Shown: positions 9,602-64,000 of the stretch, piece by piece
How positions within the stretch are numbered: position 1 is the stretch's first letter
Layout of the letters: every line of letters starts with the position of its first letter
NCBI GenBank assembly: GCA_032372955.1
Contig: GCA_032372955.1_4725.1
Length of the DNA: 64,000 bases
Origin: Escherichia coli
GTDB lineage: Bacteria > Pseudomonadota > Gammaproteobacteria > Enterobacterales > Enterobacteriaceae
Strand: one strand, 5' to 3'
Program-made: the position numbers and the translations under genes
The notes under the pieces: model-generated
Told to the model about the DNA's origin: nothing
What the model saw: only the letters and a program-made list of their open reading frames with translations
The model's database searches: none

Positions 9602-9632
9602 TATTGAAAAAAATAACAGGACTATATTACCT
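9602..9632 (+). promoter_or_regulatory. candidate phage promoter, copy 1 of conserved 31-bp motif
   Basis: TATTGAAAAAAATAACAGGACTATATTACCT, 90 nt upstream of ATG 9722; near-identical copies at 33274 and 62233. Confidence 0.5.
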
Positions 9633-21053: not shown

Positions 21054-22520
21054 ATGGCTAAAGTCAGAGAGCCGTTTAATATTAGCATTTTGCGCCTCGA
21101 TAAACAGCAGTTACGTTTTCTCCCCAAGATCACGAGCATGAGCATCCGTGACCCAAGCACCGGTAATTTCCACGATGATGGTTTCTATTCTTACACCATC
21201 TTTGGTAGTGCGGGTAGTGAAGATCGAGACCGTCGATTTGCGGTGATCGAATGCAAGGTTGAAATCCTACACCCCGTCATTTACGACCGCCTCATTCGAC
21301 TAAAACACCTCTATGGCGATATCATGTCGGGGAAGGCGTACGCTCGGTGGGATCCTGAACAACGCGACTTCGTTGCGTCTGATGCGTTAACAGGACAAAC
21401 AGGATACGGGTTCTTTGCACAACACGTCGCGGATATCAAGTTCGTTTCAACGGGTTCAGCTCAACGAGAGCTACGAATTAAAGTTGTCGAAGAGAACATG
21501 TTCAAAGCGATGACCCGTCACTTACTGGTATTGCCTGCGGGCTTACGCGAAATAGAAGTAAAAGAAGGCGGGTATGAAAGCGAGCAAGAAATCACGGAGT
21601 TGTATCGTCGTTTCCTTGCAATTTCTAACACCGTCCCTGATGGATTAAAAGATTATTCTGATCCCGTTTACGACGGTCAACGTTGGAGCTTACAGAGAAC
21701 ATTTAACGATATCTACGCTTTGTTGTTGGATATGTTCCAAGGTAAGAAAGGGATCTTCCAAGGTAAGTTCGGTTCACGTCGCGTTTGGAACTCAACCCGT
21801 AACGTTATTTCGGCAATTAACCCCACAACAGAGGTACTAGGGTCGCCCAACCAGCCTTCCTGTACCGCAGTTCAGTTAGGGTTATACCAGATGAGCAAAG
21901 CCGCCCTACCCGTGACGCAACATGCGTTACGTACGGGGATTTTGCAGGAAATATTTGTCCGTGATGTTACAGAAGTTGAACTTATCGATACCGAAACGAT
22001 GGAACGTGAACGTGTCACGCTTGATCCAGACACCATCGATGACTTTACAACATGGGACGGAATAGAACGTTTATTGAACACCTTAAGCGATCCTGGTGTA
22101 CGTAACGAACCCATCATGGTTAATGGGCGTTATCTTTGTCTCGTCTATGTGAACAATGATTCGTTTCGGTTATTCCGTGGTATGAGTGAATTACCCCCGG
22201 AGATGCTGAATAAGCCTGGTGCGGATGTTCACCCCATCACGTACACCGAGCTTATCTATATTGCCGGATATAAGTACTGGAATAACCTGGCTGCGATGGT
22301 AACACGTTATCCGGTATCGGGTATGCAATCCGTTATCCCGTTAACCTGTTACGCGCGTACAACCGTTGCAGCAAAACCGAAAACCGAACTGGATAGTAAC
22401 TGGGAACCAATAACGGATGAACGATTTATCGCATGGGAATACCCCGACTGGTTACCTAATGCCTCGTTCGTAGAAACTACTATTGTTCCTGCGCCATACC
22501 TCGCCGGTTTAGGCGGTGAT
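21054..22520 (+). CDS. multisubunit RNA polymerase beta-prime N-terminal fragment, exon 1
   Basis: ELYRRFLAISN and GKKGIFQGKFGSRRVWNSTRNVISAINP match conserved beta-prime regions; ATG 21054 with GAGGAG SD; proposed 5' splice site after T22520; ORF continues 31 codons into the intron to a stop at 22616. Confidence 0.7.
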
Positions 22521-23002
22521 AAGTCCTTGAAAAATAAAGACTTTTTTCAATGGAAGTTGTCCGGTATTCCCGAAAGGGAGTGCTTGAAAAACCTACGAAT
22601 TGCTGGGAACCCCTAAAGCTCAACGACCCATGAGGTGCCGAAAGGCAGAAACAACAGTTGAGATGCACTACCTCCCACGGAGGCTTAGGCTGAAAGAAAA
22701 GCCGCGTAAGCGGTGCTAAGGTGCGCGATAATGGGCAATCAGCAGCCTGGTTGTTGCGTAGTAATACGGCATTCTTGAAAACAAGAATGTGAAACAACGC
22801 AGGTTCAACGACTAAGGGATTTACCACCCTGTAGAGGACAAGCGTCTTCGAAGTGTAGGTTACCGTAACAGGTGTTGCTGAAGTATTCTTCAGCGAAGCT
22901 GACGGTTTGATATAGTCTCCTCTTGCATGAAAGTGCAAGCAGCCTGTGATGTACGTATCCATGCAGGCGGTCTCAGCGTAGCGACCTGAGGCGAAGACAA
23001 GG
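22521..23002 (+). ncRNA. group I intron 1 (in beta-prime gene), 482 nt, no internal ORF
   Basis: P AATTGCTGGGAA 22598-22609; Q CAATCAGCAGCC 22736-22747; R GTTCAACGACTAAGGG 22803-22818; S GATATAGTC 22909-22917 (GACTA/TAGTC forms P7); GNRA hairpins; exon ends in U, intron ends in G; boundaries inferred, about +/-10 nt. Confidence 0.7.
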
Positions 23003-23182
23003 TTCGACGGTGATACGGTCTCGGTTAACGTTCTTTATTCCATGGAAGCCATTGACGAAATTACCAACTCGCACAAGAAGCGAGCTTTCTGGGTAAGTGG
23101 TAAAAATAAATTCAACATCGATATTGGTTACGATACGGTTGCGTTTCTATTACGCAACTTAACGGGACCTCGTGGAGCCTAA
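23003..23182 (+). CDS. RNA polymerase beta-prime fragment, exon 2 (carries FDGD of catalytic motif)
   Basis: Open frame FDGDTVSVNVLYSMEAIDEI... ending TAA 23180-23182; joined to exon 1 gives ...LGGD|FDGDTVSV, i.e. a DFDGD motif. Confidence 0.55.
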   Translation, partial: FDGDTVSVNVLYSMEAIDEITNSHKKRAFWVSGKNKFNIDIGYDTVAFLLRNLTGPRGA

Positions 23183-23185
23183 CCC

Positions 23186-26100
23186 ATGGCAAAACTTAAA
23201 TACCTTGATTACTACCGACAGTTTGGTGTCAGACGCTACCAAGAGCTACTATCACCAAGATTACGTTTAGTGCAGCTACTGCAGCTGCCGCGTTATGCTG
23301 TCTATCATTACACCGCAACGGATCCTTCATTGATAGGTCCTCCAGAAAACGAATACATGCTGAGCAAAGAAAGTGCTCAACTATGGATTTCGTTTGCTGA
23401 TGATCTCGCAACCAAACAGGGTGCACCCCGACGTGATCAACGATTCCAACTCCCACGAGCGAAATTGGATTATCGTGCATCACATCGTCGTTTTCGTTTG
23501 GTTACCGATCTAAGCGCGGTGGAGAAAAACATCAACGCTCAGATCGTTGCTAACTACGCGCATCTTAACCACATGTACATTTATCGTCCAACGCTCACCC
23601 GTTGGTATGATGAATGGTTCAACGTACGTAAAACAATTTGGTCGAAAGCCAACGAAATCGCACAGCAAAGCGATCGTCAACACTTTTTGTTGTTCCGTAT
23701 ACCGTCAAAATTGCCGAAGATTTCGTTGATGCGTACCACGCAACAGGCACCGACCCGTAACAACCTCATGAATTTCGCCACGCCGGAGGAGCTGTCGTTC
23801 TTTGACTTCTTCCGCTGGTTGGGCGTCGATCGTGAGAACAGCACGATGGCTTCGTTAGACAGGGCCATGCTGGATAAGCTTAACGTCGTATTTACAGACG
23901 GTGTGTACTTCTTTACGCTGAATCTCGGCCTGCTGGAGGAATGGCGTACCGGACTTGTGAAGGAAGGGGAAGAACTCGATAAAACGACGCTTGAAACCTT
24001 CCAACGACGTTGGATGATGGCGGTAACACGTCTGTGGTCGCAGAGTGCGAATGAAGAAGAACAGAAACAAGAAGAGGAACAGGTTCTTCGTCAAGAGCGA
24101 GATATTCTTGCAGCCAGCCCGGATGCGGAGTACGATGATCGTGACGTCGTGCTTCCTAACGGTGAGGATCTGGCTACCGTTCTCGATCCCGATGAGTTAG
24201 AAGCGGAGTTGGTCGGTGGGTCGGATGAAGACGATGATGCTGATGCATGGAACGCCATCGTAGAACGCTCGTTCGAAGATGTCCGTGAAGTACCTGGGGT
24301 AGAAGTACAACCGGATTTCCAACCTGATGAAGATCAGGACATTACCGACGATCTCTTCGAAGTCGTTACCGACGATACCGAAGAAGAAAAGGTTGATGTC
24401 TTTGACGCGGCAACGTTACCAAAAACGCATGGCGAATATATTCAGTCGCTATCGGATGCGGTGTTGGTACGCGCGAGTGATCTGGCGGATGCGGGTCAGT
24501 TAAGCGGTGTCCAGTATAAAGCAGCGATGCGTAACGCCGACGCCATTCACGAAATCGAAGCACCCGACGGTTCTGGATTAACACTTGCTGAGTATGTCGA
24601 AGTTAAACCAAAAGCCGCAAAATTAGCTCCCGCAAAGGTTATGCCGGAAGCGGATGTTATCGTCGACAAGAGCTTATGTAAATCGACGCTCGCGGTGTGG
24701 GATAAACATTACGTCGAACACGTAATGCAAAAGGACATCGCAGCTGCCGTTGTTGCGGTACAGCAGGCGGGTTACCCTGTTACGGGATATAAAGTTGAAG
24801 ATGTTGTTGACGTGATGGGGGACTATCAAGTCATCACGATTAAACTGGCCCCTGTAGGCGGTGTCCCGACCACGTTCCCGGTGATGTTGCCGAAGGTTCG
24901 TAAGGACGGCATTTATGTCGTTAACGGTATCAAGTACCGGATGCGTAAACAACGCGTCGATAAACCTATTAGAAAGGTATCGTCATCTGAAGTCGCATTG
25001 AGTACCGCCTACGGTAAGGTGTTTGTTAAACGTTCAGAGCGCGTCGTTAATAACGCCGGTCGTTGGTTAACACGCCAACTTACGGCGATGTATTACGATA
25101 AGTCCTCGCCCTTAACAACGTTAAAACGCGGTAACGTCTTTGATCCGGCTGTCAAAGTTCCGTATTACTTCGCTGTGCTTGCACGCAACTATACCCAAAT
25201 CCAATTTGCTGATTGGGATATACGTCTCGATATAAAAACATTGCCGGAGTTCATCGGGGAAGATCGGTTCAACGAACAGTTAGCCGAAGGACTCCTGACG
25301 TTCGCGCGTAACACGTTGGGTGAATTCTTAGCAATCGATAAACGCAATCAGCTCTATATCTGTCAGTCGGGACAAACACCAACACCTGTAGGGACGTTCC
25401 CTGATTTCTTCGGCATTAATGCGGCTAAGATGCCGATCGAAGCCGCCGATCTTGAATTCATGGGTGTACGTATTCCGGTCGGTGTTGTTCTAAGTTATCT
25501 GGGTGGGCTTACCCCGTTATTAGAACATCTTAAAGCGAACTATCGTACGGTACCTCGCGGCTCTCGTATGGGGTTAGCACCCGATGAATTCGCAGTGAGC
25601 TTTGACGACGAAAGTCTGATCTTCAGTAAAGACGATCGCATGACGACGTTGTTGCTGGGTGGGTTTAACGAATACCGTAACTACATTGGTTACGCTCGCG
25701 GTGCTTTCGACAATCGAGATATCTATTTTAACGTTGTTGATGGTGCTGGACTTAAGGTTCGCCATTTGCGCGAACTTGAACTCATGGAGCGTCTTTTCAT
25801 CGATCCGGTAAGCCGTACGTTGTTGCAGAACATGGGAGAACCTACCGATTTCGCCATGTTGTTACTGCGTGCTGTTGAACTGCTTCTGGATGATTGGGCA
25901 CCTAACACGAACGATGTGAACTACCAACGTTTTAAAACGTACGATAAGTTCGCTGAATTGGTGTATAAGGACCTGGTTGGCGCTATTCGTCAGAATGAGA
26001 ACAGCAGTCAAGGGAACCGCCAGAAAATCTCAATCAGTCCGGTAAGCGTCTGGAACCAAATTCTCGACGATAGCGCTTCCATCGTGATCGATGAAACCAA

Positions 26101-26392
26101 CCCGATGCTGGATATCAAGCAGGGTGAAGAAGCAACGATGACCGGTATCGGGGGTCGTTCAAAGACATCGCTTCGACGCGCACGTGATCGCGAATACGAC
26201 AAGTCGGACATTGGTGTTGTATCCGAAGGTACGAAGGATAGTGGGGACGTAGGTATTTCTGCTTACCTCGCACCTAACGCAAACATTGTGTCTGTATACG
26301 GTGAAACGAAACCTTACGACGAGAAAACGGATGGTAGCTCGTCAATAATGAGTACATCAGCACTTGCAGTACCTGCTGCTGATAGAGATGAT
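23186..26392 (+). CDS. multisubunit RNA polymerase beta fragment, exon 1
   Basis: ATG with GGAG SD; C-terminal part has beta-like TGIGGRSKTSLRRARDREYD ... VVSEGTKDSGDVGISAYLAPNANI; about 500 aa N-terminal extension; in-frame TAA at 26393 is proposed to be intronic. Confidence 0.75.
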
Positions 26393-26874
26393 TAACGCTT
26401 TTAATAGCAGGGTCCGTCTATGTGGCGACATGTAGATGAGATTCACTGAATTGCGAAGACATCCGTCGCTGTTATCGACCAAAACGGATTCTGAAAAGAA
26501 AGACGGTACGGTATAAAAACAGATAATAGCTTAAGGACAATCCGCAGCCAAGTACCTAAGGATCGCTGTGAAGCGTTCTAAGGTAAAGGTTCAACGACTA
26601 AGGGATTCATCCCCCTGTACCCCTCGAGTGAGGCATTCTCCTTGGATAAGAGAATGGTGCTGGATGCGCTGGGAAGAAGTGAACTCTCGTTGAGGTGCTG
26701 AAGAAGCACCGTTTGAAACGAGATGTGATATAGTCTGCTCTTGCGTGAGAGCGCAAGCGGGAGGTGGTGCGCCTATCATCGCCTCCGGGATAAGACTAAC
26801 GACCTTATCTGAACAATCTAATCTCAGTCTTATTTCGGTAACGGTATGTTAATACTGAATAAGAACTAAATTCG
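26393..26874 (+). ncRNA. group I intron 2 (in beta gene), 482 nt, no internal ORF
   Basis: P GAATTGCGAAGA 26448-26459; Q CAATCCGCAGCC 26538-26549; R GTTCAACGACTAAGGG 26589-26604; S GATATAGTC 26727-26735; 3' hairpin TAAGACTAACGACCTTATCTGAAC; 5' splice site uncertain within 26365-26393. Confidence 0.65.
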
Positions 26875-28014
26875 CCCAAGAGATTGGTATTTATAGGTAT
26901 CCAACACAACCGCATGATTGCTGCTGAAGGTTACGATGTACAGCCGTGGCGTACGGGTGGTGAGACTGTTATCGCGCATCGTGTTGGTAAGCTCTTCGCA
27001 GCAGCTGCCCAAGGCGATGGTGTTGTGAAGAAGGTCACTAAAACTGCGCTGACGATACAGTACGACGACCCAGAGTTAGGGGAAGAGGTTTTCCAGCTCG
27101 GTACGATAATCGGGAAAGGACCAGGTAAGTATTATCCTCACGATCTCATTACCGATTATAAAGTCGGGGATCGCGTTAAGGATCAGGATGTGGTGGTTTT
27201 CCACCGCCTTTATTTTAAACGCGATTGGTGGAACCCAGGTCAGGTTGTTTGGCGCGCAGGTGTTCTGTCTCTTGTCGGTATTCTGGATATTCCAGAGACC
27301 CACGAGGACAGCTCGTATATCTTCGACAATCTTGCTGATCGTCTCGTAACACCATCGATTAAGAGTCGTACGCTTATCGTTGACGCTCATCTCAACATTC
27401 GTGGTCTCGTGAAAATCGGTGATCATGTTGAACCGCGAACGATTCTTGCAACACTGGAAGAACCGATTGCAACCGATCTGAGTGATGAGAGTCAGGAAGC
27501 CGTTGAAGCATTACGTCGTATGAGTCAGTATAACCCACGTGCTGATGTTCATGGTGAAGTTGTACAGATCGATGTACTGTACCGCGCTCAGATTGAAGAC
27601 ATGAGTGAAACCATGGCAGCGCTCGTCGGTGAGGCAGATAAAGCACGAGCTAAACGCGTCAAGGAACTGAAACTCAACGAAGCAACAACGGGGCGTATCA
27701 ATAACAGTAACGTGAGAATAGACGGTAATCCGTTAGGCGAGAACCAGATCGCCATCCGTATTTTCATGCGTTACGACCTTGGTGCGGGGATGGGTGATAA
27801 AGGTACCTTCGCAGCTCAAGCGAAATCCGTTGTCTCTTCCGTGGGTCATGGTGTGAACAAAACCGAAGACGGGCACACCCTTGATGCTATCTTCAGTGGC
27901 ACCAGTATCGCTAACCGTATCATCGGTTCACCGGAAGTGGTTGGGACTGTGAATCTTGGTCTCCTCTACGCAACGGAACGAGCTGTTGATATTTACTTTA
28001 ACGACGCTAAATAA
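26875..28014 (+). CDS. RNA polymerase beta fragment, exon 2
   Basis: Begins PKRLVFIGIQHNRM (fork-loop-like) and contains GDKGTFAAQAKSVV ... EDGHTLDAIFSGTSIANRIIGSPE (beta GDK...GNKG / SRMN-like region); only a TTG with no usable SD in this frame, so independent translation is unlikely. Confidence 0.7.
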   Translation, partial: PKRLVFIGIQHNRMIAAEGYDVQPWRTGGETVIAHRVGKLFAAAAQGDGVVKKVTKTALTIQYDDPELGEEVFQLGTIIGKGPGKYYPHDLITDYKVGDRVKDQDVVVFHRLYFKRDWWNPGQVVWRAGVLSLVGILDIPETHEDSSYIFDNLADRLVTPSIKSRTLIVDAHLNIRGLVKIGDHVEPRTILATLEEPIATDLSDESQEAVEALRRMSQYNPRADVHGEVVQIDVLYRAQIEDMSETMAALVGEADKARAKRVKELKLNEATTGRINNSNVRIDGNPLGENQIAIRIFMRYDLGAGMGDKGTFAAQAKSVVSSVGHGVNKTEDGHTLDAIFSGTSIANRIIGSPEVVGTVNLGLLYATERAVDIYFNDAK

Positions 28015-33290: not shown

Positions 33291-33304
33291 GGTCTATATT
33301 ACCT
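33274..33304 (+). promoter_or_regulatory. candidate phage promoter, copy 2 of conserved 31-bp motif
   Basis: TATTGGAAAAAAGTTGAGGTCTATATTACCT, 122 nt upstream of ATG 33426. Confidence 0.5.
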
Positions 33305-35941: not shown

Positions 35942-38014
35942 TTACGCCGCTTCTGCTGCTTCGGTGTTACGACGCAGCCCGGTGATGGTAAACGTACCCA
36001 CGGTCATGCCTGGATCGCCGATCAGGCTGATATCGCCGTGATAGCTGAAGCCGTTGTAACCGTCTTCTTTATCCAGGTAGAAACGTCCCTTAACAGTCAC
36101 ATGGTCGTTGTAACGGCCTGTGGTGTATTCCAGGAAGCGTTCGCCCATCAGTTTCAGGAACAGCGTTTCATCCATTCCTGTAGTACCGGTGGTTTCTGCC
36201 CAGAGACGATAGCAGACACGAGTCAGATCGCAACCGATGATCACGTTGATCAACGAACGCCATACCGAACGGTCGTTATTGTAGATCGTGCCCCAAGCCG
36301 GGAAGAAGTTGGAATTACGGTTGTAGGTCTGAACATAGTTCAAGCCGTTTTCCCAATCACGATCACGGACCGTTGCGTTACGATACGTCTTGTTGATTTT
36401 ACGCATCGTTGTGACAACGTTACCAGGGTTGTTATCGATGCGGGTACCGCGGATAACACCATCCGAAGCACCCATGTAAGTTGCCAGTTTATTAGCAACT
36501 TCCAGCGTCAACGGAACTTTACCCAGGCTTGGCGCTTCGATGCTTTCACCGTATTGCATGAATACAGCGGCACGGCAAGCTGGGGTGTTGTAAAGCACGC
36601 TTTCTGGATGCAGACGATAGTAGTTACGCAGCATCGCACCCATGGAGCTTTCTTCATCGACATTCAGTTCCACACCCTTCCAGGTATGGGTTGACGCAAT
36701 GATCATGACATCCGGACGCAGAGACAAGACGTTTGCCATCGCCTTCTTCGTGTCGACTTTGTAACCAATGTCATACACGATGGAGAACGGATAGAAAGCC
36801 ATGTCTTCCAGATCTTCGCCCATTCTGCCGAACGATTCGAACTGCTGTTTCGCTAACGCATCGAAGGTATCCCAGTCGACGTCACCGTCGCTACCATCAA
36901 TTGCGTAGAAGGTGCTGGTACCATCAAAGATGACGCCGCCCTGATCCGCATCGAGAACTTCGATGGTTTGATAAGGGATGCCGTTGTAATCGACACCAGT
37001 GAAGATGTTCATCTGACCTTCGACGAATTCAACGTCGGTTAACAGATCGTTGTTAACTTTGCTTTCAGATTCGTACAGTTTCTTGACGACTTCATCGATG
37101 TTCTTCTGATAAAGATGCATCTGATCCATTGGAGCAAAGATCGGGGTATTACCCGTCTCATTATACTCGTAGGCATCAACGACCACTTTACCGAAGGACA
37201 GATCGGTTTCGTCATCAGGCTGGATAACACCTTCCTGCAACGCGAAGGTTTCTTGTTCCATGCCACTGATCGTACGAATGACCGTCGGCGCAGTACGTGA
37301 AGACTTGCGTTCCACGAACTGAATGCGGTACAGGAAAGCACCGATACGTTCGATGATATCGGTACGGGTAGGGTTGCTGCTCAGCGCGGTCGGTGCTTCC
37401 AGACGTAAGCCGATGTTGTCCCCTTCAGCACCACGCCAGCTCACCATTCCATCCAGAATAGGATAGTAGTTACTCTGGGTACCATCAGCTGCGGTCAGTT
37501 GTCCGATAACCACTTCATCTTTACCGAAAGCATTAGGTGCTACGGCATCTTTGTCGTGGTTAACAATCCAACGCATTTTCACCCCGTCAACGGTTTTATC
37601 GCCGTCAGGGATTTTGTTGCCGTCGGTGTCCTTCATAAAGGACCCGTCAGCGTTACGCTGGTAAACGACCAGTTTATCGGCGACCACTTCAACACCGATA
37701 CGGATGCGCGCTGCCGTTGCATCCGGCGCAACCAAACGTTTTGTGAAGATCGCGCTACCTGTAGAAGCCGCCTGGCGAGCAATCAGTGTTGCCGGAGAAG
37801 CGTACTTACTGCGGTAGTTCAGCATATCTTCACCGTAGACTGTAGACAGGGCGTCCCCCGTTAACAGCAAGGTGTCCTCTTTACCACGACCACCCTGAAT
37901 GAAAACATACGGGAGGTGAATGGGCGTGATCTCTGGGGCTGTAACCGGATCCGTGGTAAGACCCTCTTTAAAGCCCGTAAAAATCGCGCGAGGCGTGCTA
38001 TTCTTAAGCCTCAT
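35942..38014 (-). CDS. putative contractile tail sheath protein
   Basis: 690 aa, strongly codon-biased, AAGGAG SD; sheath-then-tube arrangement as in phiKZ-like phages (from memory); identity not confirmed. Confidence 0.55.
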   Translation of the reverse strand: MRLKNSTPRAIFTGFKEGLTTDPVTAPEITPIHLPYVFIQGGRGKEDTLLLTGDALSTVYGEDMLNYRSKYASPATLIARQAASTGSAIFTKRLVAPDATAARIRIGVEVVADKLVVYQRNADGSFMKDTDGNKIPDGDKTVDGVKMRWIVNHDKDAVAPNAFGKDEVVIGQLTAADGTQSNYYPILDGMVSWRGAEGDNIGLRLEAPTALSSNPTRTDIIERIGAFLYRIQFVERKSSRTAPTVIRTISGMEQETFALQEGVIQPDDETDLSFGKVVVDAYEYNETGNTPIFAPMDQMHLYQKNIDEVVKKLYESESKVNNDLLTDVEFVEGQMNIFTGVDYNGIPYQTIEVLDADQGGVIFDGTSTFYAIDGSDGDVDWDTFDALAKQQFESFGRMGEDLEDMAFYPFSIVYDIGYKVDTKKAMANVLSLRPDVMIIASTHTWKGVELNVDEESSMGAMLRNYYRLHPESVLYNTPACRAAVFMQYGESIEAPSLGKVPLTLEVANKLATYMGASDGVIRGTRIDNNPGNVVTTMRKINKTYRNATVRDRDWENGLNYVQTYNRNSNFFPAWGTIYNNDRSVWRSLINVIIGCDLTRVCYRLWAETTGTTGMDETLFLKLMGERFLEYTTGRYNDHVTVKGRFYLDKEDGYNGFSYHGDISLIGDPGMTVGTFTITGLRRNTEAAEAA

Positions 38015-43430: not shown

Positions 43431-43451
43431 GGAGGGTGCCGAGCACCCTCC
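43431..43451 (+). promoter_or_regulatory. intercistronic stem-loop immediately upstream of terminase RBS
   Basis: ggagggtg-ccgag-caccctcc, 8-bp stem, no U-tract, directly followed by GGAGG SD. Confidence 0.3.
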
Positions 43452-43466
43452 ATCGGAGGAGTTTAT

Positions 43467-45698
43467 ATGTCGATTGTCGATCCGAAGAAAATCATCCTGT
43501 TTGAGGAAGATTGGGATTATTTTCCTCAGGCTGTCCCACACTGGGAAACAACAAACACAAGTTGGCGTGATTTAGCGATCTTGTATCGCCGTGAATTCGG
43601 TGTCCGAAACTCTGCGTTTTTCATGGCGTTATTAAACCCAAGATTAATCGGTGTTGATCCCCACGCACCGAATTTGACGTCAGAACAGATTCAGATGATC
43701 AGTGCGGAATGCTATCTTAATCCATGGTACTTCTTCCGTGAAGTGATGCGTGTTCCGGCTAAAGCGGGTGATAACAAAATCTCATTCCGTGCTAACCGCG
43801 GTAACATTCCGATGCTCTGGGGGATATTTACCCGAACGAACTGGTATCAGATACAGATACGTCAGACGGGTAAATCCATGACCATGTTAGGGTTGTTCTG
43901 TTATCTAACCTATGTTCGTAGTCGAAACACCGAGGTTATTCAGTTAACAAAAGACGGTGATGCCCGCACGAAAACGGTAGAAGACGTGCGTAGTATACGC
44001 GATCTGCTGCCTGCATATCTCTGGACGCTGGATAGTCGCGATTCATCGAACAAAGAGAACGTGACCTACACGCGTTTCAAGAACAAGCTATCGGTAAAGA
44101 TTCCACGTTCGGATAAGAAACAAGCAACAAACATCGGTCGTGGTCTAACAACCCCGCTATTCCATAGCGACGAAACCGCGTTTACGAAATACATCGAAAT
44201 CATTGTTCCTGCTGGTATCGGTGCGATGGGTGCGGCACGCGATGAAGCATTAAGCAACGGTGACCTGACGAGTATCATCTACACGACAACGGCAGGTGAA
44301 TTGGATAAACGCGAAGGCAAATGGGCTTATGAAGTTTTCATGCGTTCCGCGCCGTTCTCTGAAAGTTTCTTTGACTGCCGTAACGAAAAGCATCTGCACC
44401 AGACGGTATTGAACAACGTACCGTGCGAGCTCAGCAAAGCGACCGTCAGGATCGGGGCACAATGGAACCATGCTCAGCTGGGCTTCAGTGACGAATGGTT
44501 AGCAAAAACCATGAACGAAACGGAAGGTGATAAACTTCAGAAAGACCGCGACTACATGAACATTTGGACCAACGGTTCAGCAGAAAGCCCGTTAACCGCC
44601 GAGATGGTTGAGATGATCATGGCAGGACAACGTGAAATCGACCATATCGAGATCTCACCTGAAGGCTACTGCATTAACTGGTATATACCCCGAGGTAAAA
44701 TCGAGACATACATGCAGAACAACAAGGTGGTTGCTGGTTTAGATACCAGTGACGCGATAGGTCGTGATGCTATCGGTTTGGTGATGGTGGATGTGGAAAC
44801 AGCAGAAGTTGTTGCGACAGGACGTTTTAATAAACTGAGCCTGCTTTCTTTTGCTCGTTGGATGGCCAACTTCATGATGCGTTTTAAGAACGTCACGTTG
44901 ATTCCTGAACGTAAAAGCAGTGCAATCATGCTGTTAGACGCAATTGAAGAGTTCTTGCGGCAAGCAGGCATCGACGTGTTCAAACGTGTATACAACACGA
45001 TTGTGGACAGACATGCTGATAACCCAGCGATGTTCGAAGACCTGAAATTACCATTAAGCATGCGTGATGAAAGTTGGTACGCTCAACGTAAACGGCACTT
45101 GGGTTTCACAACGGATGCACGCAAACGTATGGAGTTGTATTCCGACATCTTGATGGAAGGTATTGTAGAAACCCGCGGGCAGTTACGCGATAAGATGCTG
45201 TGTTCAGAGATTCTTGGGTTGGTTATTAAAGATGGGCGTGTTGACCACCAGGACGGAATGCACGACGACATGACGTTCGCATGGATGTTAGCGATGTGGT
45301 TCATCAAGCGCGCTAAGAAACAGATTCATTACGGTATCGATCCACTTAAAGTCATGAGTCGTTTACCGGCATCTGTGACGGGTGAAATCGATCCGTATGA
45401 AGCTTATCTTAACCAACAGCAAGCGAAGCTACGTCAACGCGTTGCTGAAATCTATGAGTTGCTTAAGACCGAAACCAACGGCCTTATCTTGGATCGATTG
45501 GAGGCAGAGCTTCTTACCTATAAAGGAAAAATACGCGGGGAGGATTCAGCGTCTGTCTCTATCGACGCGATGATTACGAAAGCGAGGGAGGAACGAGCGA
45601 ATACGTATCGTCAAATAAGTCGCTCTTCGAACGAACGGAATATTTCTCGTAATGCGTGGATGACGATGGGTCAATACCGACCAGGGGGTTTTTTCTAA
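43467..45698 (+). CDS. terL: terminase large subunit
   Basis: P-loop-like IQIRQTGKSM, Walker B-like PLFHSDETAF, and nuclease-domain acidic motifs (VAGLDTSDAIGRDAIG ... HQDGMHDDMTFAWMLAMWF); 743 aa. Confidence 0.7.
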   Translation: MSIVDPKKIILFEEDWDYFPQAVPHWETTNTSWRDLAILYRREFGVRNSAFFMALLNPRLIGVDPHAPNLTSEQIQMISAECYLNPWYFFREVMRVPAKAGDNKISFRANRGNIPMLWGIFTRTNWYQIQIRQTGKSMTMLGLFCYLTYVRSRNTEVIQLTKDGDARTKTVEDVRSIRDLLPAYLWTLDSRDSSNKENVTYTRFKNKLSVKIPRSDKKQATNIGRGLTTPLFHSDETAFTKYIEIIVPAGIGAMGAARDEALSNGDLTSIIYTTTAGELDKREGKWAYEVFMRSAPFSESFFDCRNEKHLHQTVLNNVPCELSKATVRIGAQWNHAQLGFSDEWLAKTMNETEGDKLQKDRDYMNIWTNGSAESPLTAEMVEMIMAGQREIDHIEISPEGYCINWYIPRGKIETYMQNNKVVAGLDTSDAIGRDAIGLVMVDVETAEVVATGRFNKLSLLSFARWMANFMMRFKNVTLIPERKSSAIMLLDAIEEFLRQAGIDVFKRVYNTIVDRHADNPAMFEDLKLPLSMRDESWYAQRKRHLGFTTDARKRMELYSDILMEGIVETRGQLRDKMLCSEILGLVIKDGRVDHQDGMHDDMTFAWMLAMWFIKRAKKQIHYGIDPLKVMSRLPASVTGEIDPYEAYLNQQQAKLRQRVAEIYELLKTETNGLILDRLEAELLTYKGKIRGEDSASVSIDAMITKAREERANTYRQISRSSNERNISRNAWMTMGQYRPGGFF

Positions 45699-51965: not shown

Positions 51966-52498
51966 TGAGTGAGAAACCGCAAGTAAAGCTATATAAATCC
52001 GGCTATACGACAATAGAATACATTGAAGGGATTCACAAAAAGAAAGGTGCGGCGTATGTGCTGCATTATTCCAAACATCACGATACGCTATTTGCTTTTA
52101 CCGTAGTAAATATGCGAAATGTGAGTAGTAATGATATCGAACGTTGGTTAAATATCCATCCGACCGATGATCGTGTTCAATTTATCGTTACGCCATGTGT
52201 TGCGTTTTCTGGTAACGCCTATCGTTTTATGGATAGCGAAGACGGCGAATTATTTCTACGTTTGTATATCACCGACATTGCGAAGACAAGATCGACACCA
52301 TCATTGATCGTTGATGAGACAAAGACGCAATACGGTATTCAGTTCGATTGTTTACCGGACGATCTCATTTTCAGTAATAAGCTATCAACCTCGGCCTGTA
52401 TTATTGCTGCTGAATTTGCGAACGTGCTGAAAGTGTTTAAACGGCAAATACCTCCCTCGAAAACACCGAGGGAGGAAGCTGTTGTTAATCAGAAGTAA
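51962..52498 (+). CDS. hypothetical protein
   Basis: ATG 51962 in ATGA overlap; ORF-track start 51881 overlaps the upstream gene. Confidence 0.6.
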   Translation: MMSEKPQVKLYKSGYTTIEYIEGIHKKKGAAYVLHYSKHHDTLFAFTVVNMRNVSSNDIERWLNIHPTDDRVQFIVTPCVAFSGNAYRFMDSEDGELFLRLYITDIAKTRSTPSLIVDETKTQYGIQFDCLPDDLIFSNKLSTSACIIAAEFANVLKVFKRQIPPSKTPREEAVVNQK

Positions 52499-53331
52499 CC
52501 GGTTTGTAGTCGAATGGCGCGACGTTTAGTTTGTGGATCGTTCCAGGCAGCAACGCCAGCCCACGTTTCGTTCAGGAATTCCTGATATGTGTTTTCAGCA
52601 TCAGCAAAGCGATCGATGTATTCCTTGAATGCACCGACTTCTTGTCCTTGTGCTGTAACACCTCTGTCAAGACGGATAACGGTTCTGTTGTAGATGTCAC
52701 TTTGCGTGGCGTATAAACAGAGTTTGTAGAAATCGTTCCAAACCTCCATGCTGAGGTTGGTAAGTTCCGGATCGTGGGCAAGGAAACAGCGTAGGCTCAG
52801 GGGAAATTGTACAGGCGTGACGTTGTTCACCATGATGGTGTTAGGCGCGATGATATCAACGTTGGCTGTACTAAGAACGTTCATGGGACCGAACGCGTTC
52901 ATCCCTTGCTGTAACGTGTTGCTTGCGGGGTTCCACCCACAAAGCTGACGTTGAAATTGGGTTTGGTTGAAAGCGCCCCATTGCCCGTTATAGTTTATTC
53001 CGTAGTTGTTCACGCTCCCTGAAATAATGGATAATGCGGACGTGATGTAACGTCCCTGCGTGGCTTCCAACGGAATGTGGAAAACATAACAGTTAATGGT
53101 GACTTCTTCGATAGTGACACCGGCATCATCAAGGGGGATAACGGTTTGTAGTCCCCCGTAGATATCGATGTCGCCGATAACCCGTTTACGGATTACCCAA
53201 TCGGTAATGATGTCTTCTACGGAACGAGGATAGCGATTACGCCAGTCGTAGCGATCGATATAGCAATACTGTAGGATATCTGCCGGTATTGTACGACAGA
53301 TACGATCTACACTGTAGTCAATAGCACCCAT
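52489..53331 (-). CDS. hypothetical protein
   Basis: ATG with AGGGGTGA SD (minus); 280 aa; 10-nt convergent overlap with 51962..52498. Confidence 0.65.
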   Translation of the reverse strand: MGAIDYSVDRICRTIPADILQYCYIDRYDWRNRYPRSVEDIITDWVIRKRVIGDIDIYGGLQTVIPLDDAGVTIEEVTINCYVFHIPLEATQGRYITSALSIISGSVNNYGINYNGQWGAFNQTQFQRQLCGWNPASNTLQQGMNAFGPMNVLSTANVDIIAPNTIMVNNVTPVQFPLSLRCFLAHDPELTNLSMEVWNDFYKLCLYATQSDIYNRTVIRLDRGVTAQGQEVGAFKEYIDRFADAENTYQEFLNETWAGVAAWNDPQTKRRAIRLQTGYF

Positions 53332-53395
53332 GGGTCACCCCTTTAGCAAAGAAAGATTCATTGTGCGTTAAATACATATTAAGTTAGGAGTTCAC

Positions 53396-54376
53396 ATGCA
53401 AGAGAACCAAGTACATATTTGGGCTGTCGGTGGTTGTGGTGGCGAAATCGGCTCAGCATTTGAAGGCGAAGTCGCGAAAGGATTACACAGCATGACGTAT
53501 GTTGATACCAGCCGCGCTAACCTACGCGATAGCACACTGGGCGACGATCATATTTACATCTTTAAAGATGCAGCCGGTCGTGAGTTAGACGGTTCTGGTA
53601 AGAAGCGTGACGAGAACGCTGAACTGATCTGTTCGCAAATCCCAGGTATTCTCAATAAGCATACACCAGGTAAATTTAATATCGTGGTCTTTAGTTTGAG
53701 CGGTGGTTCAGGTTCTGTTGCCGGTCCTGCGTTGGTTGCTAACCTGCTGGAACGCGGTGAACGTGTGGTGTGTTGCATCGTTGCCTCGTTCGATGATGAG
53801 CGTCAGACGATCAACGCCGATCGCACCTTCAAAGGACTGATGGCGGCTGCAGAAGGGTTGAAGCGTCCAGTGATTGTTAGCTATCACATGAATGGCGAAA
53901 ATGGGAAATCAGAGCAGGATGTCAACCTGGATGTGCAGGTTGTTATCAGCCAGCTTTGCGTTCTGTTTTCTGGCGAGAACCGTCGTCTTGACAGCGCTGA
54001 CCTGGAAAACTTCTTAAACCATCCACGTGTTACCGGTTTGGAACCAACGATCACCGAACTGAATACGTTCATGGGATACGATTGGACGAAAGAGAACGAT
54101 AGCCCGATTGCTTTCTGTACGCTTTATCCGAAAGACGCGACAAAAGTCATGGGCGTTAGCGCTATTTACAGCTGCGATGGTTTTGTGCCTGAAAGCAGCC
54201 CAATTCGTGAAGCGACGTCGTTTGTTTTAAGTACCGATCGTTTAGGGGGTATTATCAAACAGATCGCGGACGAAGCGAAACGTTACATCGAACATCGTAA
54301 CGCGCGTCAACAGGCACCGAAAGTTGGTGACGAAACTGTAGCAGAAGCGAAGAATAGCGGTTTCTTGCTTTTCTAA
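53396..54376 (+). CDS. phuZ: PhuZ-like phage tubulin/FtsZ-family protein
   Basis: N-terminal VGGCGGEIG (T1-loop-like) and SLSGGSGSVAG (tubulin GGGTGSG signature-like); 326 aa, close to known PhuZ length; AGGAG SD. Confidence 0.7.
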   Translation: MQENQVHIWAVGGCGGEIGSAFEGEVAKGLHSMTYVDTSRANLRDSTLGDDHIYIFKDAAGRELDGSGKKRDENAELICSQIPGILNKHTPGKFNIVVFSLSGGSGSVAGPALVANLLERGERVVCCIVASFDDERQTINADRTFKGLMAAAEGLKRPVIVSYHMNGENGKSEQDVNLDVQVVISQLCVLFSGENRRLDSADLENFLNHPRVTGLEPTITELNTFMGYDWTKENDSPIAFCTLYPKDATKVMGVSAIYSCDGFVPESSPIREATSFVLSTDRLGGIIKQIADEAKRYIEHRNARQQAPKVGDETVAEAKNSGFLLF

Positions 54377-54413
54377 CACCGAACCAAAAAGTTCAAGTGA
54401 TTGGAGATGCGCT

Positions 54414-54614
54414 ATGTCGCTGTTTATCTGCGAACGTTGCGGTCATGTTGATAGTACCGAACTCGCTTACGAGAATCGACAAAGTGCTGGTCAGTTCCTG
54501 TGTACGAAATGCCAAGGCCGTCAATGGCATGGCTATTTTCCATATCAGCTGTATGACCCAGCAAAACACGCACATATCGTCAACCATCCTTCATTGAAAT
54601 TGGATGGTTATTAA
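54414..54614 (+). CDS. small zinc-ribbon-like protein
   Basis: 66 aa with CERCGH ... CTKCQG (two CxxC pairs); GGAG SD. Confidence 0.55.
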   Translation: MSLFICERCGHVDSTELAYENRQSAGQFLCTKCQGRQWHGYFPYQLYDPAKHAHIVNHPSLKLDGY

Positions 54615-54623
54615 GTTCTATCG

Positions 54624-54650
54624 AGCCTGTCCTTCGGGGCAGGCTTTTAT
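54624..54650 (+). terminator. rho-independent terminator with UUCG tetraloop
   Basis: agcctgtcc-ttcg-gggcaggct (9 bp, one G-U) followed by tttat. Confidence 0.65.
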
Positions 54651-54667
54651 GCCGCGTAGGAGAAAGC

Positions 54668-54988
54668 ATGGGAAAGTGGTGGGAGAAAATAAGAAAGCGG
54701 TTTAACGATTGGAATCAGGAACGGCAAGATCGTAAGGATATTGAAGTTATGCGTGGTTACCCAGCGTATACCAACACGTACCTTACGCTCTACTACAATC
54801 GCTCAAAGAAAGAATGGACATTTGAATGGGATGATTTGTTCGCTAACCCCAGACCTGCACATTGGCCATTCCACGACTGTGTTATGGTTGTCCCTCCAGA
54901 TACCAGAGCAACGGAGGATGAAATAAAGCGTGCTTGGGACGTCTTAGACGAAAGAGGTATCGGTGGTATTCGAAGAGGGAGAAAATGA
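54668..54988 (+). CDS. hypothetical protein
   Basis: ATG with AGGAG SD; 106 aa. Confidence 0.6.
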   Translation: MGKWWEKIRKRFNDWNQERQDRKDIEVMRGYPAYTNTYLTLYYNRSKKEWTFEWDDLFANPRPAHWPFHDCVMVVPPDTRATEDEIKRAWDVLDERGIGGIRRGRK

Positions 54989-55079
54989 CGTCAGAAACTC
55001 TCCTGCTTCGTTTTACGCCGTATATTTTAACTATTCCCAGATATCGTGTGTATAAACAATGGGGACTTAGGAAAAGAGT

Positions 55080-56057
55080 ATGACCAAGAGATTAGCCAGG
55101 ATCGATTTGTACACATTAGCATCGTGGGTTTCATTACCGCTTATCGATTGTCTGAGTTTGCATCATCAACGCCAGCTTTCTCCGAAGGAAAAAATGCAAT
55201 TAACCGAGTTGTTGGTGGATTTCGATCTTAATCAGAGAATGACCTGGACTCGACATGATCCTCGATATCGTCATGAATCGTTCGCAGATATTCTCGGCCC
55301 GATTTGGTACCAACCTGAATTTCGAGAAGACTTCGATGTTGTCCAGGGTATGGTAACCGAATATTTGTCTTATCATCACAATAAGCTGTTTGGTAAGAAC
55401 TGGTCGGATAACCGTATTTACGGAATAGAACGTGTGTGCGATTATGCCTATATTGTTGATCTTGGCCGCGTTCCTAAACGTCAAACAAAACCAACGCCGT
55501 TAAAAGCATTTGAGTTCCAAGAAACAGAGTATTGCGTCGATCGTAAATCAGCAACCGAACACGTTGTCCGCGTACGTAATAGTAATCCTCGAGTGATGGC
55601 GATGCCGTCAATTAACATTACGATCAATATCTGCCCGTCTGGCGCGATTGTTGAACGTCCCCAGGAGCTAACAGATGAACAATTTGAATGGCTTGGGCAA
55701 TTGGAAGAACTTCGATTGGCTCACGCAAAACGAAAAGCGGAACAACTCGCCAATGAACCCGTTTATATTAAACAAGGCCTTGCCCTTAAGGAGCGATTTA
55801 AACAACGCCGCTCCGTCTTCGGTCCGGTGCAACCCGTACTATATGAGTTTGGGGTTCCCGAGTACCGGATGGATGCTGAGTCGGTGGCAACCGCTTTCTT
55901 GGATAACGGTGAAATACATCGACAAGGTGCACGTTCTTCGGGTCCTTTTAGACCGGTTCGAGTCCAGCGTCCACGCAGACATCGGCATACTAAGTCGAGA
56001 ACAGGAAATGATGACGTGTCACGAGACATGGACCGATCTCATTACCGAACTTATTGA
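55080..56057 (+). CDS. hypothetical protein (3' portion doubtful; possible frameshift into next frame near 55900-55925)
   Basis: ATG with AGGA SD; last 50 codons are rich in rare CGA/AGA codons while the +1 frame looks coding. Confidence 0.45.
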   Translation: MTKRLARIDLYTLASWVSLPLIDCLSLHHQRQLSPKEKMQLTELLVDFDLNQRMTWTRHDPRYRHESFADILGPIWYQPEFREDFDVVQGMVTEYLSYHHNKLFGKNWSDNRIYGIERVCDYAYIVDLGRVPKRQTKPTPLKAFEFQETEYCVDRKSATEHVVRVRNSNPRVMAMPSINITINICPSGAIVERPQELTDEQFEWLGQLEELRLAHAKRKAEQLANEPVYIKQGLALKERFKQRRSVFGPVQPVLYEFGVPEYRMDAESVATAFLDNGEIHRQGARSSGPFRPVRVQRPRRHRHTKSRTGNDDVSRDMDRSHYRTY

Positions 56058-58765: not shown

Positions 58766-60919
58766 ATGGAAAATCCGTTCTTTTACGATGAAAACGGATA
58801 TGGTCGTACGTTGGATATGACCAAAGAAGCGGTACAGGATTATACCCTGTTCTTAATGCGCACGCGTGGGATATCTCAGCAGGAAGCGTTGCAGTTTGTT
58901 CTTGAAACGGTTCGTCCTGGTGGAAAATACGGGATGGTTGATCCCGACTGCCTGGTATTAACACAGCGTACCGAAGGAAATCGAGAAAAAGAAGTCATCA
59001 AGTTCAGCCAATACTTCAACGATATTAAAGAAAATAATTTAATTATCACGCCGGTATGGGCTAACTGTTATCCGCGTGAAACACGTTCCAGTGTGTTAAG
59101 CGACTTCGCGGTTGAAAACGGTAAGTTGCGTAAGAAACAAAAGAAACAAATGTCGATAGCACAAGCACACGGACGTAAAGACGAAGCGGAGCTACACGAT
59201 AAACGACAAACCAACACCAAGTTAGACAACAACAGTTTGTCAGGAACCCAGGCGTCCAAGTTCAACCCTTTTTATAATCCGATTGCGCATCCAAGTTTAA
59301 CGACAACATGTCGCTGTGCTTCAGGTTCAGCCAATGCGAACAACGAACGCTTCCTTGCGGGCAATTTCCATTATTACGATTGTGATATCGCAATTGAAAA
59401 CATCGTGAGTATTGTCCGTAACAGCGATCGTAAGGCCATTGAGCAGGTAATGGTAAAATACAAACTGCATTACCCTACGCCGGAAGAGGTTTGGGCTAAC
59501 GTATCGAAATGCTTGCATCGATATACTTTCGACCCAGAGAAAGAGCTGACCATCCGGGAGCTAATTACCGGTTTAACGCCATTAGAACGCGCCTGCTACA
59601 TGTACAGCAATAACCTGTACTCGTTACGTGAGCTTAATCCTGAATTCGTTCGAGATTTTCTTGATTCGTTATGTGAGCTGGCATCCGAACCTGTTGAAAC
59701 GATGGAAGAGGCTAAAGCCATTATTGCTTCCATGGATAACAACACGGTCGCTTGGATCACAGCACAATGTACGGAGTTCTTGAATGGGGAGGCGATTTAC
59801 GTAGCGCTAGAAAAAGGAAATGAACTTGGTTATCGTCTTACCGCAGCAACGACAAAATTAATGCTGCAGCGTATCCAAAGCTACGCTGATTTGATTATGG
59901 CGTTCTGGCGTACCGAGAACCAACCGGCTGGAGTTTATGCTTTCCCGTCGGCAATCCGTGAAGTGGGTGTGTTGTCTGATACCGACTCGACGGTGTTTAC
60001 CTGCCAGGAGTGGGTTCAGTGGCGATTTGGAAATATGGAGATCAATCCAATTTCGACGCGCTTAGCAAACACGCTTATCTATCTGGTTACGCAGATTACG
60101 GTTCATCTGATGGCGATGTGTTCTGGTAATATCGGTGTAGCGAAAGAGCATATGTACGTGATGGAAATGAAGAACGAATATATGTTCTTGATTCTGTCGT
60201 TAACCTCGATGGGTAAAAACTATTACGGTTACATGACCATGCGTGAAGGGGTTCCTATCAATCCACCGAAGCTGGAATTGAAAGGTCCGGTTATGCGTGA
60301 TGCGTCAGCACCAAAAATGATCGTCAAACGTGTTGAACGCATGATGTGCGGTATCATGGATAAGCTGTTACGTAATGAGAAGATCAGCATTCGATTGGTT
60401 CTTGACGATATTATCTCGTTAGAAAACGAAATCGTTGAGTCCATGAAACGCGGTGATCCCGATTTCTTAACACGTGTTAAAGTGAAGCCACATGTTGCGG
60501 TAACGAAACAGTCTTACGATATGTGGGAAGAGGTGTTTGCTCAATCGTACGGCCATTGCCAGGAACCACCCTATATTGGGGTTCGTGTGCCGTTGGCGAC
60601 GAAGAACAAAACGCTTCTTAACGATTGGATTGATTCCTGGGAGGATAAAGGGTTACAACAACGTTTCCGTGATTGGATTGTACGTAACGATAAGAAAACG
60701 ATAAGCAACTTAACGATACCATTACCGGTGATCGAAGCCTCCGGGCTTCCCGATATCTTTATTCAAGGGATGGATATTCGTCGATTGATTTCTACGCTCG
60801 TGCGTTCGTATTACGCGTTAATGGAAAGTTACGGTATTTTCATCTCGAATAAAAACAATACATTGTTAGCCCAAGACATTGCAGCAAGTTATTTACCGAA
60901 GCGAGAAACCACAGAGTAA
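58766..60919 (+). CDS. hypothetical protein, 717 aa
   Basis: ATG with GGAGG SD; contains acidic SDTDS and GKNYYGY motifs of unknown significance. Confidence 0.7.
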   Translation: MENPFFYDENGYGRTLDMTKEAVQDYTLFLMRTRGISQQEALQFVLETVRPGGKYGMVDPDCLVLTQRTEGNREKEVIKFSQYFNDIKENNLIITPVWANCYPRETRSSVLSDFAVENGKLRKKQKKQMSIAQAHGRKDEAELHDKRQTNTKLDNNSLSGTQASKFNPFYNPIAHPSLTTTCRCASGSANANNERFLAGNFHYYDCDIAIENIVSIVRNSDRKAIEQVMVKYKLHYPTPEEVWANVSKCLHRYTFDPEKELTIRELITGLTPLERACYMYSNNLYSLRELNPEFVRDFLDSLCELASEPVETMEEAKAIIASMDNNTVAWITAQCTEFLNGEAIYVALEKGNELGYRLTAATTKLMLQRIQSYADLIMAFWRTENQPAGVYAFPSAIREVGVLSDTDSTVFTCQEWVQWRFGNMEINPISTRLANTLIYLVTQITVHLMAMCSGNIGVAKEHMYVMEMKNEYMFLILSLTSMGKNYYGYMTMREGVPINPPKLELKGPVMRDASAPKMIVKRVERMMCGIMDKLLRNEKISIRLVLDDIISLENEIVESMKRGDPDFLTRVKVKPHVAVTKQSYDMWEEVFAQSYGHCQEPPYIGVRVPLATKNKTLLNDWIDSWEDKGLQQRFRDWIVRNDKKTISNLTIPLPVIEASGLPDIFIQGMDIRRLISTLVRSYYALMESYGIFISNKNNTLLAQDIAASYLPKRETTE

Positions 60920-62080: not shown

Positions 62081-62232
62081 ACGAACTCCGTAAGAAGATG
62101 GTAAACGGATATGACATTACTCTCAATAAGAGAAGTAAAAGTTTACAGACATATCCTGATTATATGTAGAAAGAATGTTGCTTCTCGGCAGCGTTCGCCT
62201 AGGGGTTTATATCGTTCAATGTGGTTACACCA

Positions 62233-62263
62233 ATATTGAAAAAAATTTCAGGGTTATATTACC
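62233..62263 (+). promoter_or_regulatory. candidate phage promoter, copy 3 of conserved 31-bp motif
   Basis: TATTGAAAAAAATTTCAGGGTTATATTACCT, about 70 nt upstream of ATG 62335. Confidence 0.5.
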
Positions 62264-62334
62264 TAGGTGAATGAGCGAGTAGAAGCTGATTCAATGACGT
62301 CATTTAATAAAGTTTAAGAAAAGAGGAATCCCAA

Positions 62335-64000
62335 ATGGGCTTAGACGTACGTAATAACGGTAACGATAATGTAGAAATTCGTGCAGCTGAAACCCGCACC
62401 GCACAACGTGCTGATGAGGCGCTGGAAACCGCTGCAGATTTTGCCGACCGTCCTAAAGTAACTCATACGATGCGTACGATCAACCGTACACTGAGCCGTC
62501 GTATCAGCCGTAATACCGGCTCCGAGCAGGTACTGAATCTCCGTCGTCTGATGGAGAAATATCTGGAAGATACCCAGTTCAAAGACGACTTCATCTTTGT
62601 TGCGGTTGACCCGAACCAGTACAGCGTACCGTATCCGACCCTGGTTGTTATGAGCGGTGCAAAAGTTGGTGACCATAACCACTTCTTCGGTTACGTCCTG
62701 CCGCTGGTTGCTGGTTTGGCTCCGCTGCCGCGTCGTGAAGAACAAGGTCCGCATGGTAACATTCTGGTACCGCGTACCTGGGTTGATAACCTGAACGGTA
62801 CGTTCATCAACGAAGTCATGGCGGCAATGTATTCAGCTATTGGCGGTAAGTCTAACGGTACTGTTCGTATCGCTGGTCTGGCTGTGGTGACCAATGAAAT
62901 CACCGCTGAATCTGCGCATCTGGCAACCACCCTGCTGTCTGCTGCAGATAACGCAATCCAAACCGCGATCGAAATCCGTCTCGGTGATAAACTGGGTCTG
63001 CCGCAGTTCAACCTGGGCATGATGGCAAGCGATCAGCCAATCAGCAGCGTTCAGTACAACACCAGCGGTATGCAGGACAGCGATATTGTTGGTAACCCTG
63101 TGCGTTCTGACATCACTGTAACTATCTCTAACCGCATCCGTCAAGCGATGAGCGATTACGATAGTCAACAGCGTCTGGTCGCCACCACCGGTTACATTGA
63201 CCTGACCTACAGCCCGCAGAACCCGACCTTCAACCAAGGCCCTGTTCTGGTTAACGGTTATCCGGTACCGCCGACTGTACAATACCAGCCGCGTTACGTG
63301 ATGACCAGCGCTTACCCGCTGGAGCTGGATGCGTTCACACCGAACAGCTTCGTGCTGGGTCTGATTGGTACCATCGCTACGCTGAACAGCGGCATGGCAT
63401 GGGCACAGTCTTTAATCAGCAACGCGGCTCGTGGTATTGGTCCGCATAACCCAGGTGCTCTGGCGATGGTACTGGATCCGGAAGTTACCGCACCGCTGGA
63501 TCTGTCTACTCAAACCAACGAGCAGATTTACAAGTTCCTGCAACAGGTACTGTATCCGTCTCTGCTGATTTCTATCGACGTACCGGAAGAAGGCGAATAC
63601 AGCTGGCTGCTGCGTATGATCCCGGCGGCTGAGAAGATCTATACGGGTAATGTTGAAGGTAAAGTTCAGGAAGTCTCTGAAGGCTACAAAGCACTTTACC
63701 GTGCCTTCGATGATACTACCCTGGGTTGCTTCAGCAAGAAATATCAATACGGTCAACCGCTGGTCTACGCTACCGGTAACCGTATCCCGCTGGGTTACTA
63801 CAACCACCAGGATGGTCACCGTCACGATATTCGTGATATGGACGATCTGTACATGATGAACATCACTAACCCTGATACCGTAGAAGCTTGGGAAGACAGC
63901 TTCGACCGTACCGATATGACGATGTCTCAGCGTGTTGTCGCTCGTCACGAAATCATCGATCGTGTTCTGTCTGGTAGCTGGGAACAAACCGGCTGGGCAA
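62335..64000 (+). CDS. abundant protein, 5' partial in window (at least 555 aa): candidate chimallin-like nuclear shell protein, alternatively major capsid protein
   Basis: ATG 62335 with GAGG SD; extreme codon bias (CTG, CCG, CGT, GGT, ACC); own promoter motif; about ten genes from PhuZ, which resembles shell-PhuZ spacing in nucleus-forming phages as recalled; runs off window end. Confidence 0.5.
   Translation, partial: MGLDVRNNGNDNVEIRAAETRTAQRADEALETAADFADRPKVTHTMRTINRTLSRRISRNTGSEQVLNLRRLMEKYLEDTQFKDDFIFVAVDPNQYSVPYPTLVVMSGAKVGDHNHFFGYVLPLVAGLAPLPRREEQGPHGNILVPRTWVDNLNGTFINEVMAAMYSAIGGKSNGTVRIAGLAVVTNEITAESAHLATTLLSAADNAIQTAIEIRLGDKLGLPQFNLGMMASDQPISSVQYNTSGMQDSDIVGNPVRSDITVTISNRIRQAMSDYDSQQRLVATTGYIDLTYSPQNPTFNQGPVLVNGYPVPPTVQYQPRYVMTSAYPLELDAFTPNSFVLGLIGTIATLNSGMAWAQSLISNAARGIGPHNPGALAMVLDPEVTAPLDLSTQTNEQIYKFLQQVLYPSLLISIDVPEEGEYSWLLRMIPAAEKIYTGNVEGKVQEVSEGYKALYRAFDDTTLGCFSKKYQYGQPLVYATGNRIPLGYYNHQDGHRHDIRDMDDLYMMNITNPDTVEAWEDSFDRTDMTMSQRVVARHEIIDRVLSGSWEQTGWA

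Follow-up and report, generated by a model that had tools for sequence, protein, structure and literature searches.

Near-identical PhuZ and chimallin genes place an Escherichia coli jumbo phage in the genus Goslarvirus and predict nucleus-based replication

Nucleus-based replication, the tubulin PhuZ and the shell protein chimallin (ChmA) are already known biology in Escherichia phage vB_EcoM_Goslar (Goslar), an established member of the Chimalliviridae, and for both proteins structures have been solved and functional studies published. Goslar PhuZ is gp201 in its authors' numbering and HOV27_gp234, 'tubulin PhuZ', in RefSeq (YP_009820885.1; PDB 9PM9/9PMK); Goslar ChmA is gp189 in the authors' numbering and HOV27_gp246, 'nuclear shell protein', in RefSeq (YP_009820873.1; PDB 7SQT/7SQU/7SQV). 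In the early-infection vesicle, the virion RNA polymerase (RNAP) transcribes early genes, with ChmA among the products, and ChmA knockdown arrests infection at this membrane-bound vesicle stage, blocking nucleus formation (PMC10541120). GFP-ChmA forms a halo around Goslar phage DNA, and cryo-tomography reveals that the shell excludes ribosomes (PMC9891218). Both in situ and in vitro, Goslar chimallin builds a square lattice of 11.5 nm, held together by the NTS, CTS1 and CTS2 tail segments, which invade neighbouring protomers (PMC9365700). Live imaging captures Goslar PhuZ as a vortex of filaments round the nucleus; the hydrolysis-dead, dominant-negative PhuZ(D202A) needs much lower expression to polymerise, yields no vortex, and reduces the share of rotating nuclei from 97% to 29% (PMC9891218).

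More distant relatives use the same two components. The PhuZ proteins of phiKZ (gp39; 3ZBP) and 201phi2-1 (gp59; 3R4V, 3J5V) share their family and nucleotide-binding loops with the tubulin described below, and their filaments likewise act on the phage nucleus. Goslar and 201phi2-1 PhuZ are 27% identical; in the Pseudomonas phages, a bipolar PhuZ spindle centres the nucleus, whereas the Goslar vortex does no centring (PMC9891218). The chimallins of 201phi2-1 (gp105; 7SQQ), PhiPA3 (gp53/PhuN; 8FNE) and the phiKZ type (8IGG) belong to the same Pfam family as the ChmA described below. They share ~19–22% identity with the Goslar type, whose CTS2 is shorter; Goslar and these phages have in common the protomer fold (r.m.s.d. 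1.8 Å) and a square lattice of 11.5 nm (PMC9365700).

Here, a 64,000-nt stretch of DNA from an E. coli assembly (GCA_032372955.1), hereafter the window, is compared with these systems (Table 1). Nucleotide identity assigns it to a Goslar-like E. coli jumbo phage of the genus Goslarvirus, family Chimalliviridae. In all three window parts compared, it is collinear with Goslar (NC_048170.1) and 96.6–97.7% identical to it (97% overall), matching about 171233–236317 of that genome on the reverse strand. Window positions 43396–64000 (20,605 overlapping bases) are 100% identical to contig JALBER010000001.1 of GCA_024608925.1, hereafter L004, which spans 237,848 nt, compared with 237,307 nt for Goslar. 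The hallmarks of the Chimalliviridae, a chimallin, split multisubunit RNAP genes and a jumbo genome (the identical 237,848-nt contig), are all present. The window thus almost certainly carries phuZ and chmA of a nucleus-forming Goslarvirus strain, whose behaviour would be that known from Goslar; evidence contradicting a Goslar-like PhuZ/ChmA explanation was not encountered.

Table 1. Positions of the features discussed, numbered from the first nucleotide of the window.
Feature	Position	Strand	Remarks
Split multisubunit RNAP genes (Goslar gp205 and gp207 homologues)	21054..28011	+	tblastn of gp205 and gp207; two group I introns inside
Group I intron 1	about 22535-22939	+	RF00028, 64.1 bits; 3' end of gp205 homologue
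Group I intron 2	26391-26757	+	RF00028, 52.8 bits; insertion 26391-26877; splits gp207 homologue
DUF7484 gene	52489-53331	-	Pfam, 1.4e-87; adjoins phuZ divergently
Shine-Dalgarno AGGAG	53386..53390	+	5 nt ahead of PhuZ ATG; read from sequence
phuZ	53396..54376	+	326-aa ORF; phage tubulin
66-aa gene, Goslar gp235 homologue	54414..54614	+	Two CxxC pairs; directly after phuZ
Terminator-like hairpin AGCCTGTCC-TTCG-GGGCAGGCT, then TTTTAT	54624..54650	+	GC-rich; intrinsic-terminator-like
Divergent family B DNA polymerase, Goslar gp244	58766..60919	+	Pfam PF20286 divDNApol, 9.2e-204; between phuZ and chmA
Promoter-like element TTGAAAAAAATTTCAGGGTTATATTACC	62236-62263	+	Ends ~72 nt before chmA ATG
Shine-Dalgarno GAGGA	62323..62327	+	Ahead of chmA ATG at 62335; read from sequence
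chmA (chimallin, major nuclear-shell protein)	62335..64000	+	Codons 1-555 of 631; window end cuts gene

Goslar-like genomes extend well beyond this pair. In the assembly collection, the exact PhuZ protein sequence appears in 850 blocks, many of which lie on 237–241 kb contigs; Goslar-like phages are therefore common in public assemblies and metagenomes. These records also bear on whether the variant, its genes intact, is merely metagenomic or defective and does without nucleus-based replication. The matching contig is an assembly, apparently not a cultured phage, and the strain is known here from sequence alone, but that contig is genome-length, the same PhuZ recurs on the many contigs of similar size, and all genes checked against Goslar are under purifying selection (dN/dS 0–0.125), making a defective variant very improbable.

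The original prediction reported a 326-aa protein with the tubulin/FtsZ loops VGGCGG and SGGSGS and took it for a PhuZ-like tubulin. The ORF is as described, and both loops are there. The T1 loop (VGGCGG, residues 11–16, with GGCGG at 12–16) lies in the segment VGGCGGEIG (residues 11–19), which aligns with CGGAGFRIG of phiKZ PhuZ; the T4 loop, the tubulin signature loop that resembles GGGTGS/T, is SGGSGS (residues 102–107) and aligns with GGASGS of phiKZ PhuZ. In the T7 loop, the catalytic acidic residue D202 is present and aligns with an Asp of phiKZ PhuZ; across the tubulin/FtsZ superfamily, this residue activates GTP hydrolysis in the adjoining subunit. The C-terminal tail ends in NSGFLLF.

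Family and structure searches agree on PhuZ. PHROG 4733, 'tubulin PhuZ', matches residues 1–323 of 326 with E = 2.9e-68. The best PDB match is 9pm9_C, a Goslar-type tubulin, at 325/326 identical residues, followed by PhuZ of phiKZ (3ZBP, 7.8e-29) and of 201phi2-1 (3R4V, 3RB8 and 3J5V, all ~6e-15; 6.4e-15). The match to Pfam Tubulin (PF00091; 29.9 bits, E = 8.3e-7) falls slightly below the 33-bit cut-off. Phage tubulins are divergent enough for such a shortfall to be expected, and the PHROG and PDB matches count for more. Judged by its identity to solved structures, the 53396 product has a tubulin fold. PDB 9PM9/9PMK are matched via chain C, with five chains over the two entries, which may represent a complex or a filament; a paper describing them was not found in a literature search.

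The gene resembles Goslar phuZ in length, genome position, neighbours and terminator. The two proteins differ by a single conservative substitution, E229D, with D202 kept, and the genes by 22 synonymous changes and this one non-synonymous change; the resulting dN/dS of 0.012 points to strong purifying selection. The effective number of codons is 46.1.

A rival reading takes the protein for a DNA-partition motor of the TubZ type, known from plasmids of Bacillus and from Clostridium phage c-st; together with a TubR adaptor, it would act at a tubC centromere and so segregate a prophage that resembles a plasmid. PhuZ and TubZ do share the tubulin/FtsZ superfamily, and generic Tubulin is the only Pfam match here. 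Against such a motor, the best family is 'tubulin PhuZ' over the full length, and all PDB relatives from the tubulin family are PhuZ proteins. The region 52400–55100 has no iterated centromere-like repeats, just chance two-copy matches, and the neighbours (a DUF7484 protein, one with weak zinc-ribbon resemblance and an unknown) include no HTH/TubR-like adaptor. The phage also has a chimallin gene and split RNAPs, and imaging of Goslar PhuZ shows a vortex round the nucleus (PMC9891218). A partition motor is accordingly extremely improbable, and the gene is treated as phuZ in what follows.

The immediate surroundings of phuZ are those of Goslar. The 66-aa protein encoded next to it bears a weak resemblance to zinc ribbons, with Pfam zinc-ribbon matches below their cut-offs, and its homologue gp235 is annotated as hypothetical. 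The GC-rich hairpin that follows was missed by a simple terminator scanner, its T-run having just four consecutive T, but a putative terminator is annotated at the same site in Goslar; the hairpin is likely the end of the phuZ transcription unit. On the other side, the DUF7484 gene differs from its Goslar counterpart by 13 synonymous and 0 non-synonymous changes. The Goslar annotation notes the same DUF7484-phuZ adjacency in Erwinia phage Ea35-70 (genes 206 and 207), and the pairing may be conserved.

A very strongly codon-biased gene starting at 62335 had been proposed as a chimallin-type shell gene lying about ten genes downstream of phuZ; 11 annotated genes (Goslar gp235–gp245) lie between the two. 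Spacing from phuZ had been part of that argument, and this part is weak: spacing is undiagnostic of chimallin because phiKZ, PhiPA3 and 201phi2-1 differ widely in the phuZ-chimallin distance. The proposal is correct regardless. From its ATG, the gene is open to the window end over 555 codons, and the rest has now been obtained: the full protein has 631 aa, as in Goslar, with the missing 76 residues taken from L004, which is 100% identical to the window.

Against Pfam PF25677, 'Phikzvirus chimallin family', the protein scores 71.9 bits with 555 aa and 94.9 bits with 631 aa, both above the gathering score of 27; it also matches PHROG 4795, 'nuclear shell protein', at 1.4e-42. Its closest structure is Goslar chimallin, 7sqt_A, with 542 of 555 residues identical (~98%); distant but significant PDB matches are 8FNE (PhiPA3), 7SQQ (201phi2-1) and 8IGG. 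At 98% identity to 7SQT/7SQU/7SQV, ChmA can be assigned the chimallin protomer fold. The tail segments are kept: residues 1–37 at the N terminus are invariant, and the C-terminal segments, as read from L004, match Goslar except for V621G.

The codon bias reported for this gene is fully apparent. Its effective number of codons, 34.5, is the lowest among the 52 non-overlapping window genes of at least 100 aa (median 51.5), its GC3 is 0.55, and such bias fits a very abundant protein; a tail sheath homologue (35945–38014) ranks third. Codon bias alone is common to any abundant structural protein, and the original prediction had kept open an HK97-fold major capsid protein, for which high expression and codon bias would likewise be expected. 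Searches of Pfam, PHROGs and PDB return no capsid family or structure, only chimallin or nuclear shell, and the tubulin has no capsid-family match either; the product shares 98% of its residues with the solved chimallin 7SQT; and the Goslar major head protein is gp041, at 43439–45661 of the Goslar genome, outside the window. The probability of a capsid protein is vanishingly small, and that caveat is now excluded in favour of chimallin.

Variation in ChmA is uneven. Seven of the 13 substitutions that separate the 555 residues from Goslar fall at residues 439–488, with V621G lying past the window, and the overall dN/dS of 0.125 indicates purifying selection. Among seven Goslar-like genomes, a polymorphic patch at residues 436–495 (63640–63819) holds 11 of the ~25 variable columns; a smaller variable patch, at residues 76–90, is seen in two genomes. 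Over residues 431–495, pairwise dN/dS is 0.30 with raised dS, which leaves positive selection on the patch unsupported and looks more like relaxed constraint or recombination. The 436–495 patch might be a surface touched by host sensors or phage partner proteins.

Expression of chmA from a promoter motif was also predicted, and the gene does sit behind a 28-nt element with the pattern TTGrAAAAAAr-N3-AGG-N2-TATATTACC, whose promoter role is putative. The window has three copies, all on the + strand (9604–9631, 33276–33303 and 62236–62263), against 0.00 expected from 100 shuffles, each lying in a gap that a + strand gene follows. The element precedes both genes with the strongest codon bias in the window, the 33276 copy being ahead of the second most biased. 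Only four copies occur in the ~236 kb of Goslar searched, before gp200, gp214, chmA and gp040; the products of gp200, gp214 and gp040 have no known function. Whereas background identity to Goslar is ~97%, it reaches 100% over the 254 nt upstream of chmA (62081–62334), which suggests constraint on a regulatory region, and the conserved element is a plausible candidate for the chmA promoter.

Several other readings of this region fare poorly. A sigma-70 promoter is unlikely: the TTGAAA-TATATT spacing within the element is only 13 nt, and a consensus scan of the + strand upstream of chmA returned no sigma-70-like site. A general early promoter is rejected: four copies genome-wide are too few for the 175 of 249 Goslar genes that RNA-seq finds expressed at 5 min (PMC10541120). 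A palindrome, AATGACGTCATT, at 62293 has 19 occurrences against 8.1 expected, but the others are two-mismatch matches scattered in coding sequence. A literature search for 'TATATTAC' returned only unrelated papers and no published Goslar promoter consensus; a review of jumbo-phage RNAPs describes early promoters in general terms only. It is conceivable, though on balance doubtful, that the 28-nt element represents a rare, dedicated high-output promoter class. If so, the three proteins of no known function and chimallin would form a small co-regulated set, and those three would become candidates for further abundant constituents of either the shell or the early infection vesicle.

The split RNAP invoked by the original prediction is also found: Goslar gp205 and gp207 map onto the window by tblastn, and the matching Goslar region carries annotated RNAP beta-like fragments, gp196, gp205 and gp207, with gp247 just past the window end. 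Two Rfam group I intron (RF00028) matches occur in the window, both within these genes. Intron 1 corresponds to an annotated Goslar intron that adjoins gp206, a 490-aa HNH/NUMOD1 homing endonuclease gene; the window strain differs in lacking gp206, with 36 nt replacing 1,569 nt of Goslar. The frame downstream of intron 1 (22970–23183) encodes TRFDGDTVSVNV and ends just before the ATG of the gp207 homologue at 23186; TRFDGDTVSVNV resembles the catalytic NADFDGD motif of RNAP beta-prime. This frame is likely the second exon, which has no annotation in Goslar.

Intron 2 is absent from Goslar. In tblastn, Goslar gp207 maps to 23186–26392 (residues 1–1069) and 26878–28011 (residues 1071–1448), on either side of the insertion. 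Relative to the background, the exon DNA directly 5' of this intron (~26330–26392) has diverged far more strongly from Goslar, a pattern that would be compatible with co-conversion during homing.

The phiKZ-like, nucleus-forming lifestyle that the original prediction drew from these genes is experimentally shown for Goslar (PMC9891218, PMC9365700, PMC10541120), and we infer that this strain acts likewise, with a ChmA shell and a PhuZ vortex. By analogy, ChmA would be made early from the injected genome and would self-assemble, through N- and C-terminal tails reaching neighbouring protomers, into a square-lattice shell, which would surround the replicating phage DNA and shut out host nucleases. 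PhuZ, a GTP-hydrolysing tubulin, would form dynamic filaments arranged in a vortex around the shell, as in Goslar, and would rotate it; rotation, in turn, would spread capsids across the shell surface for DNA packaging. These roles are taken from the literature on proteins 98–99.7% identical to those encoded here, their sequence identity and family membership being what the present comparison establishes.

As a discovery, the locus carries little weight: imaging, cryo-EM and knockdown have already been done in Goslar, on these near-identical proteins. The window is confidently assigned to a Goslarvirus strain, and a reading made without database searches arrived at the correct answer. For groups working on Goslar, the strain offers usable natural variants: the chimallin patch, the presence or absence of introns, and the four-copy promoter-like element.
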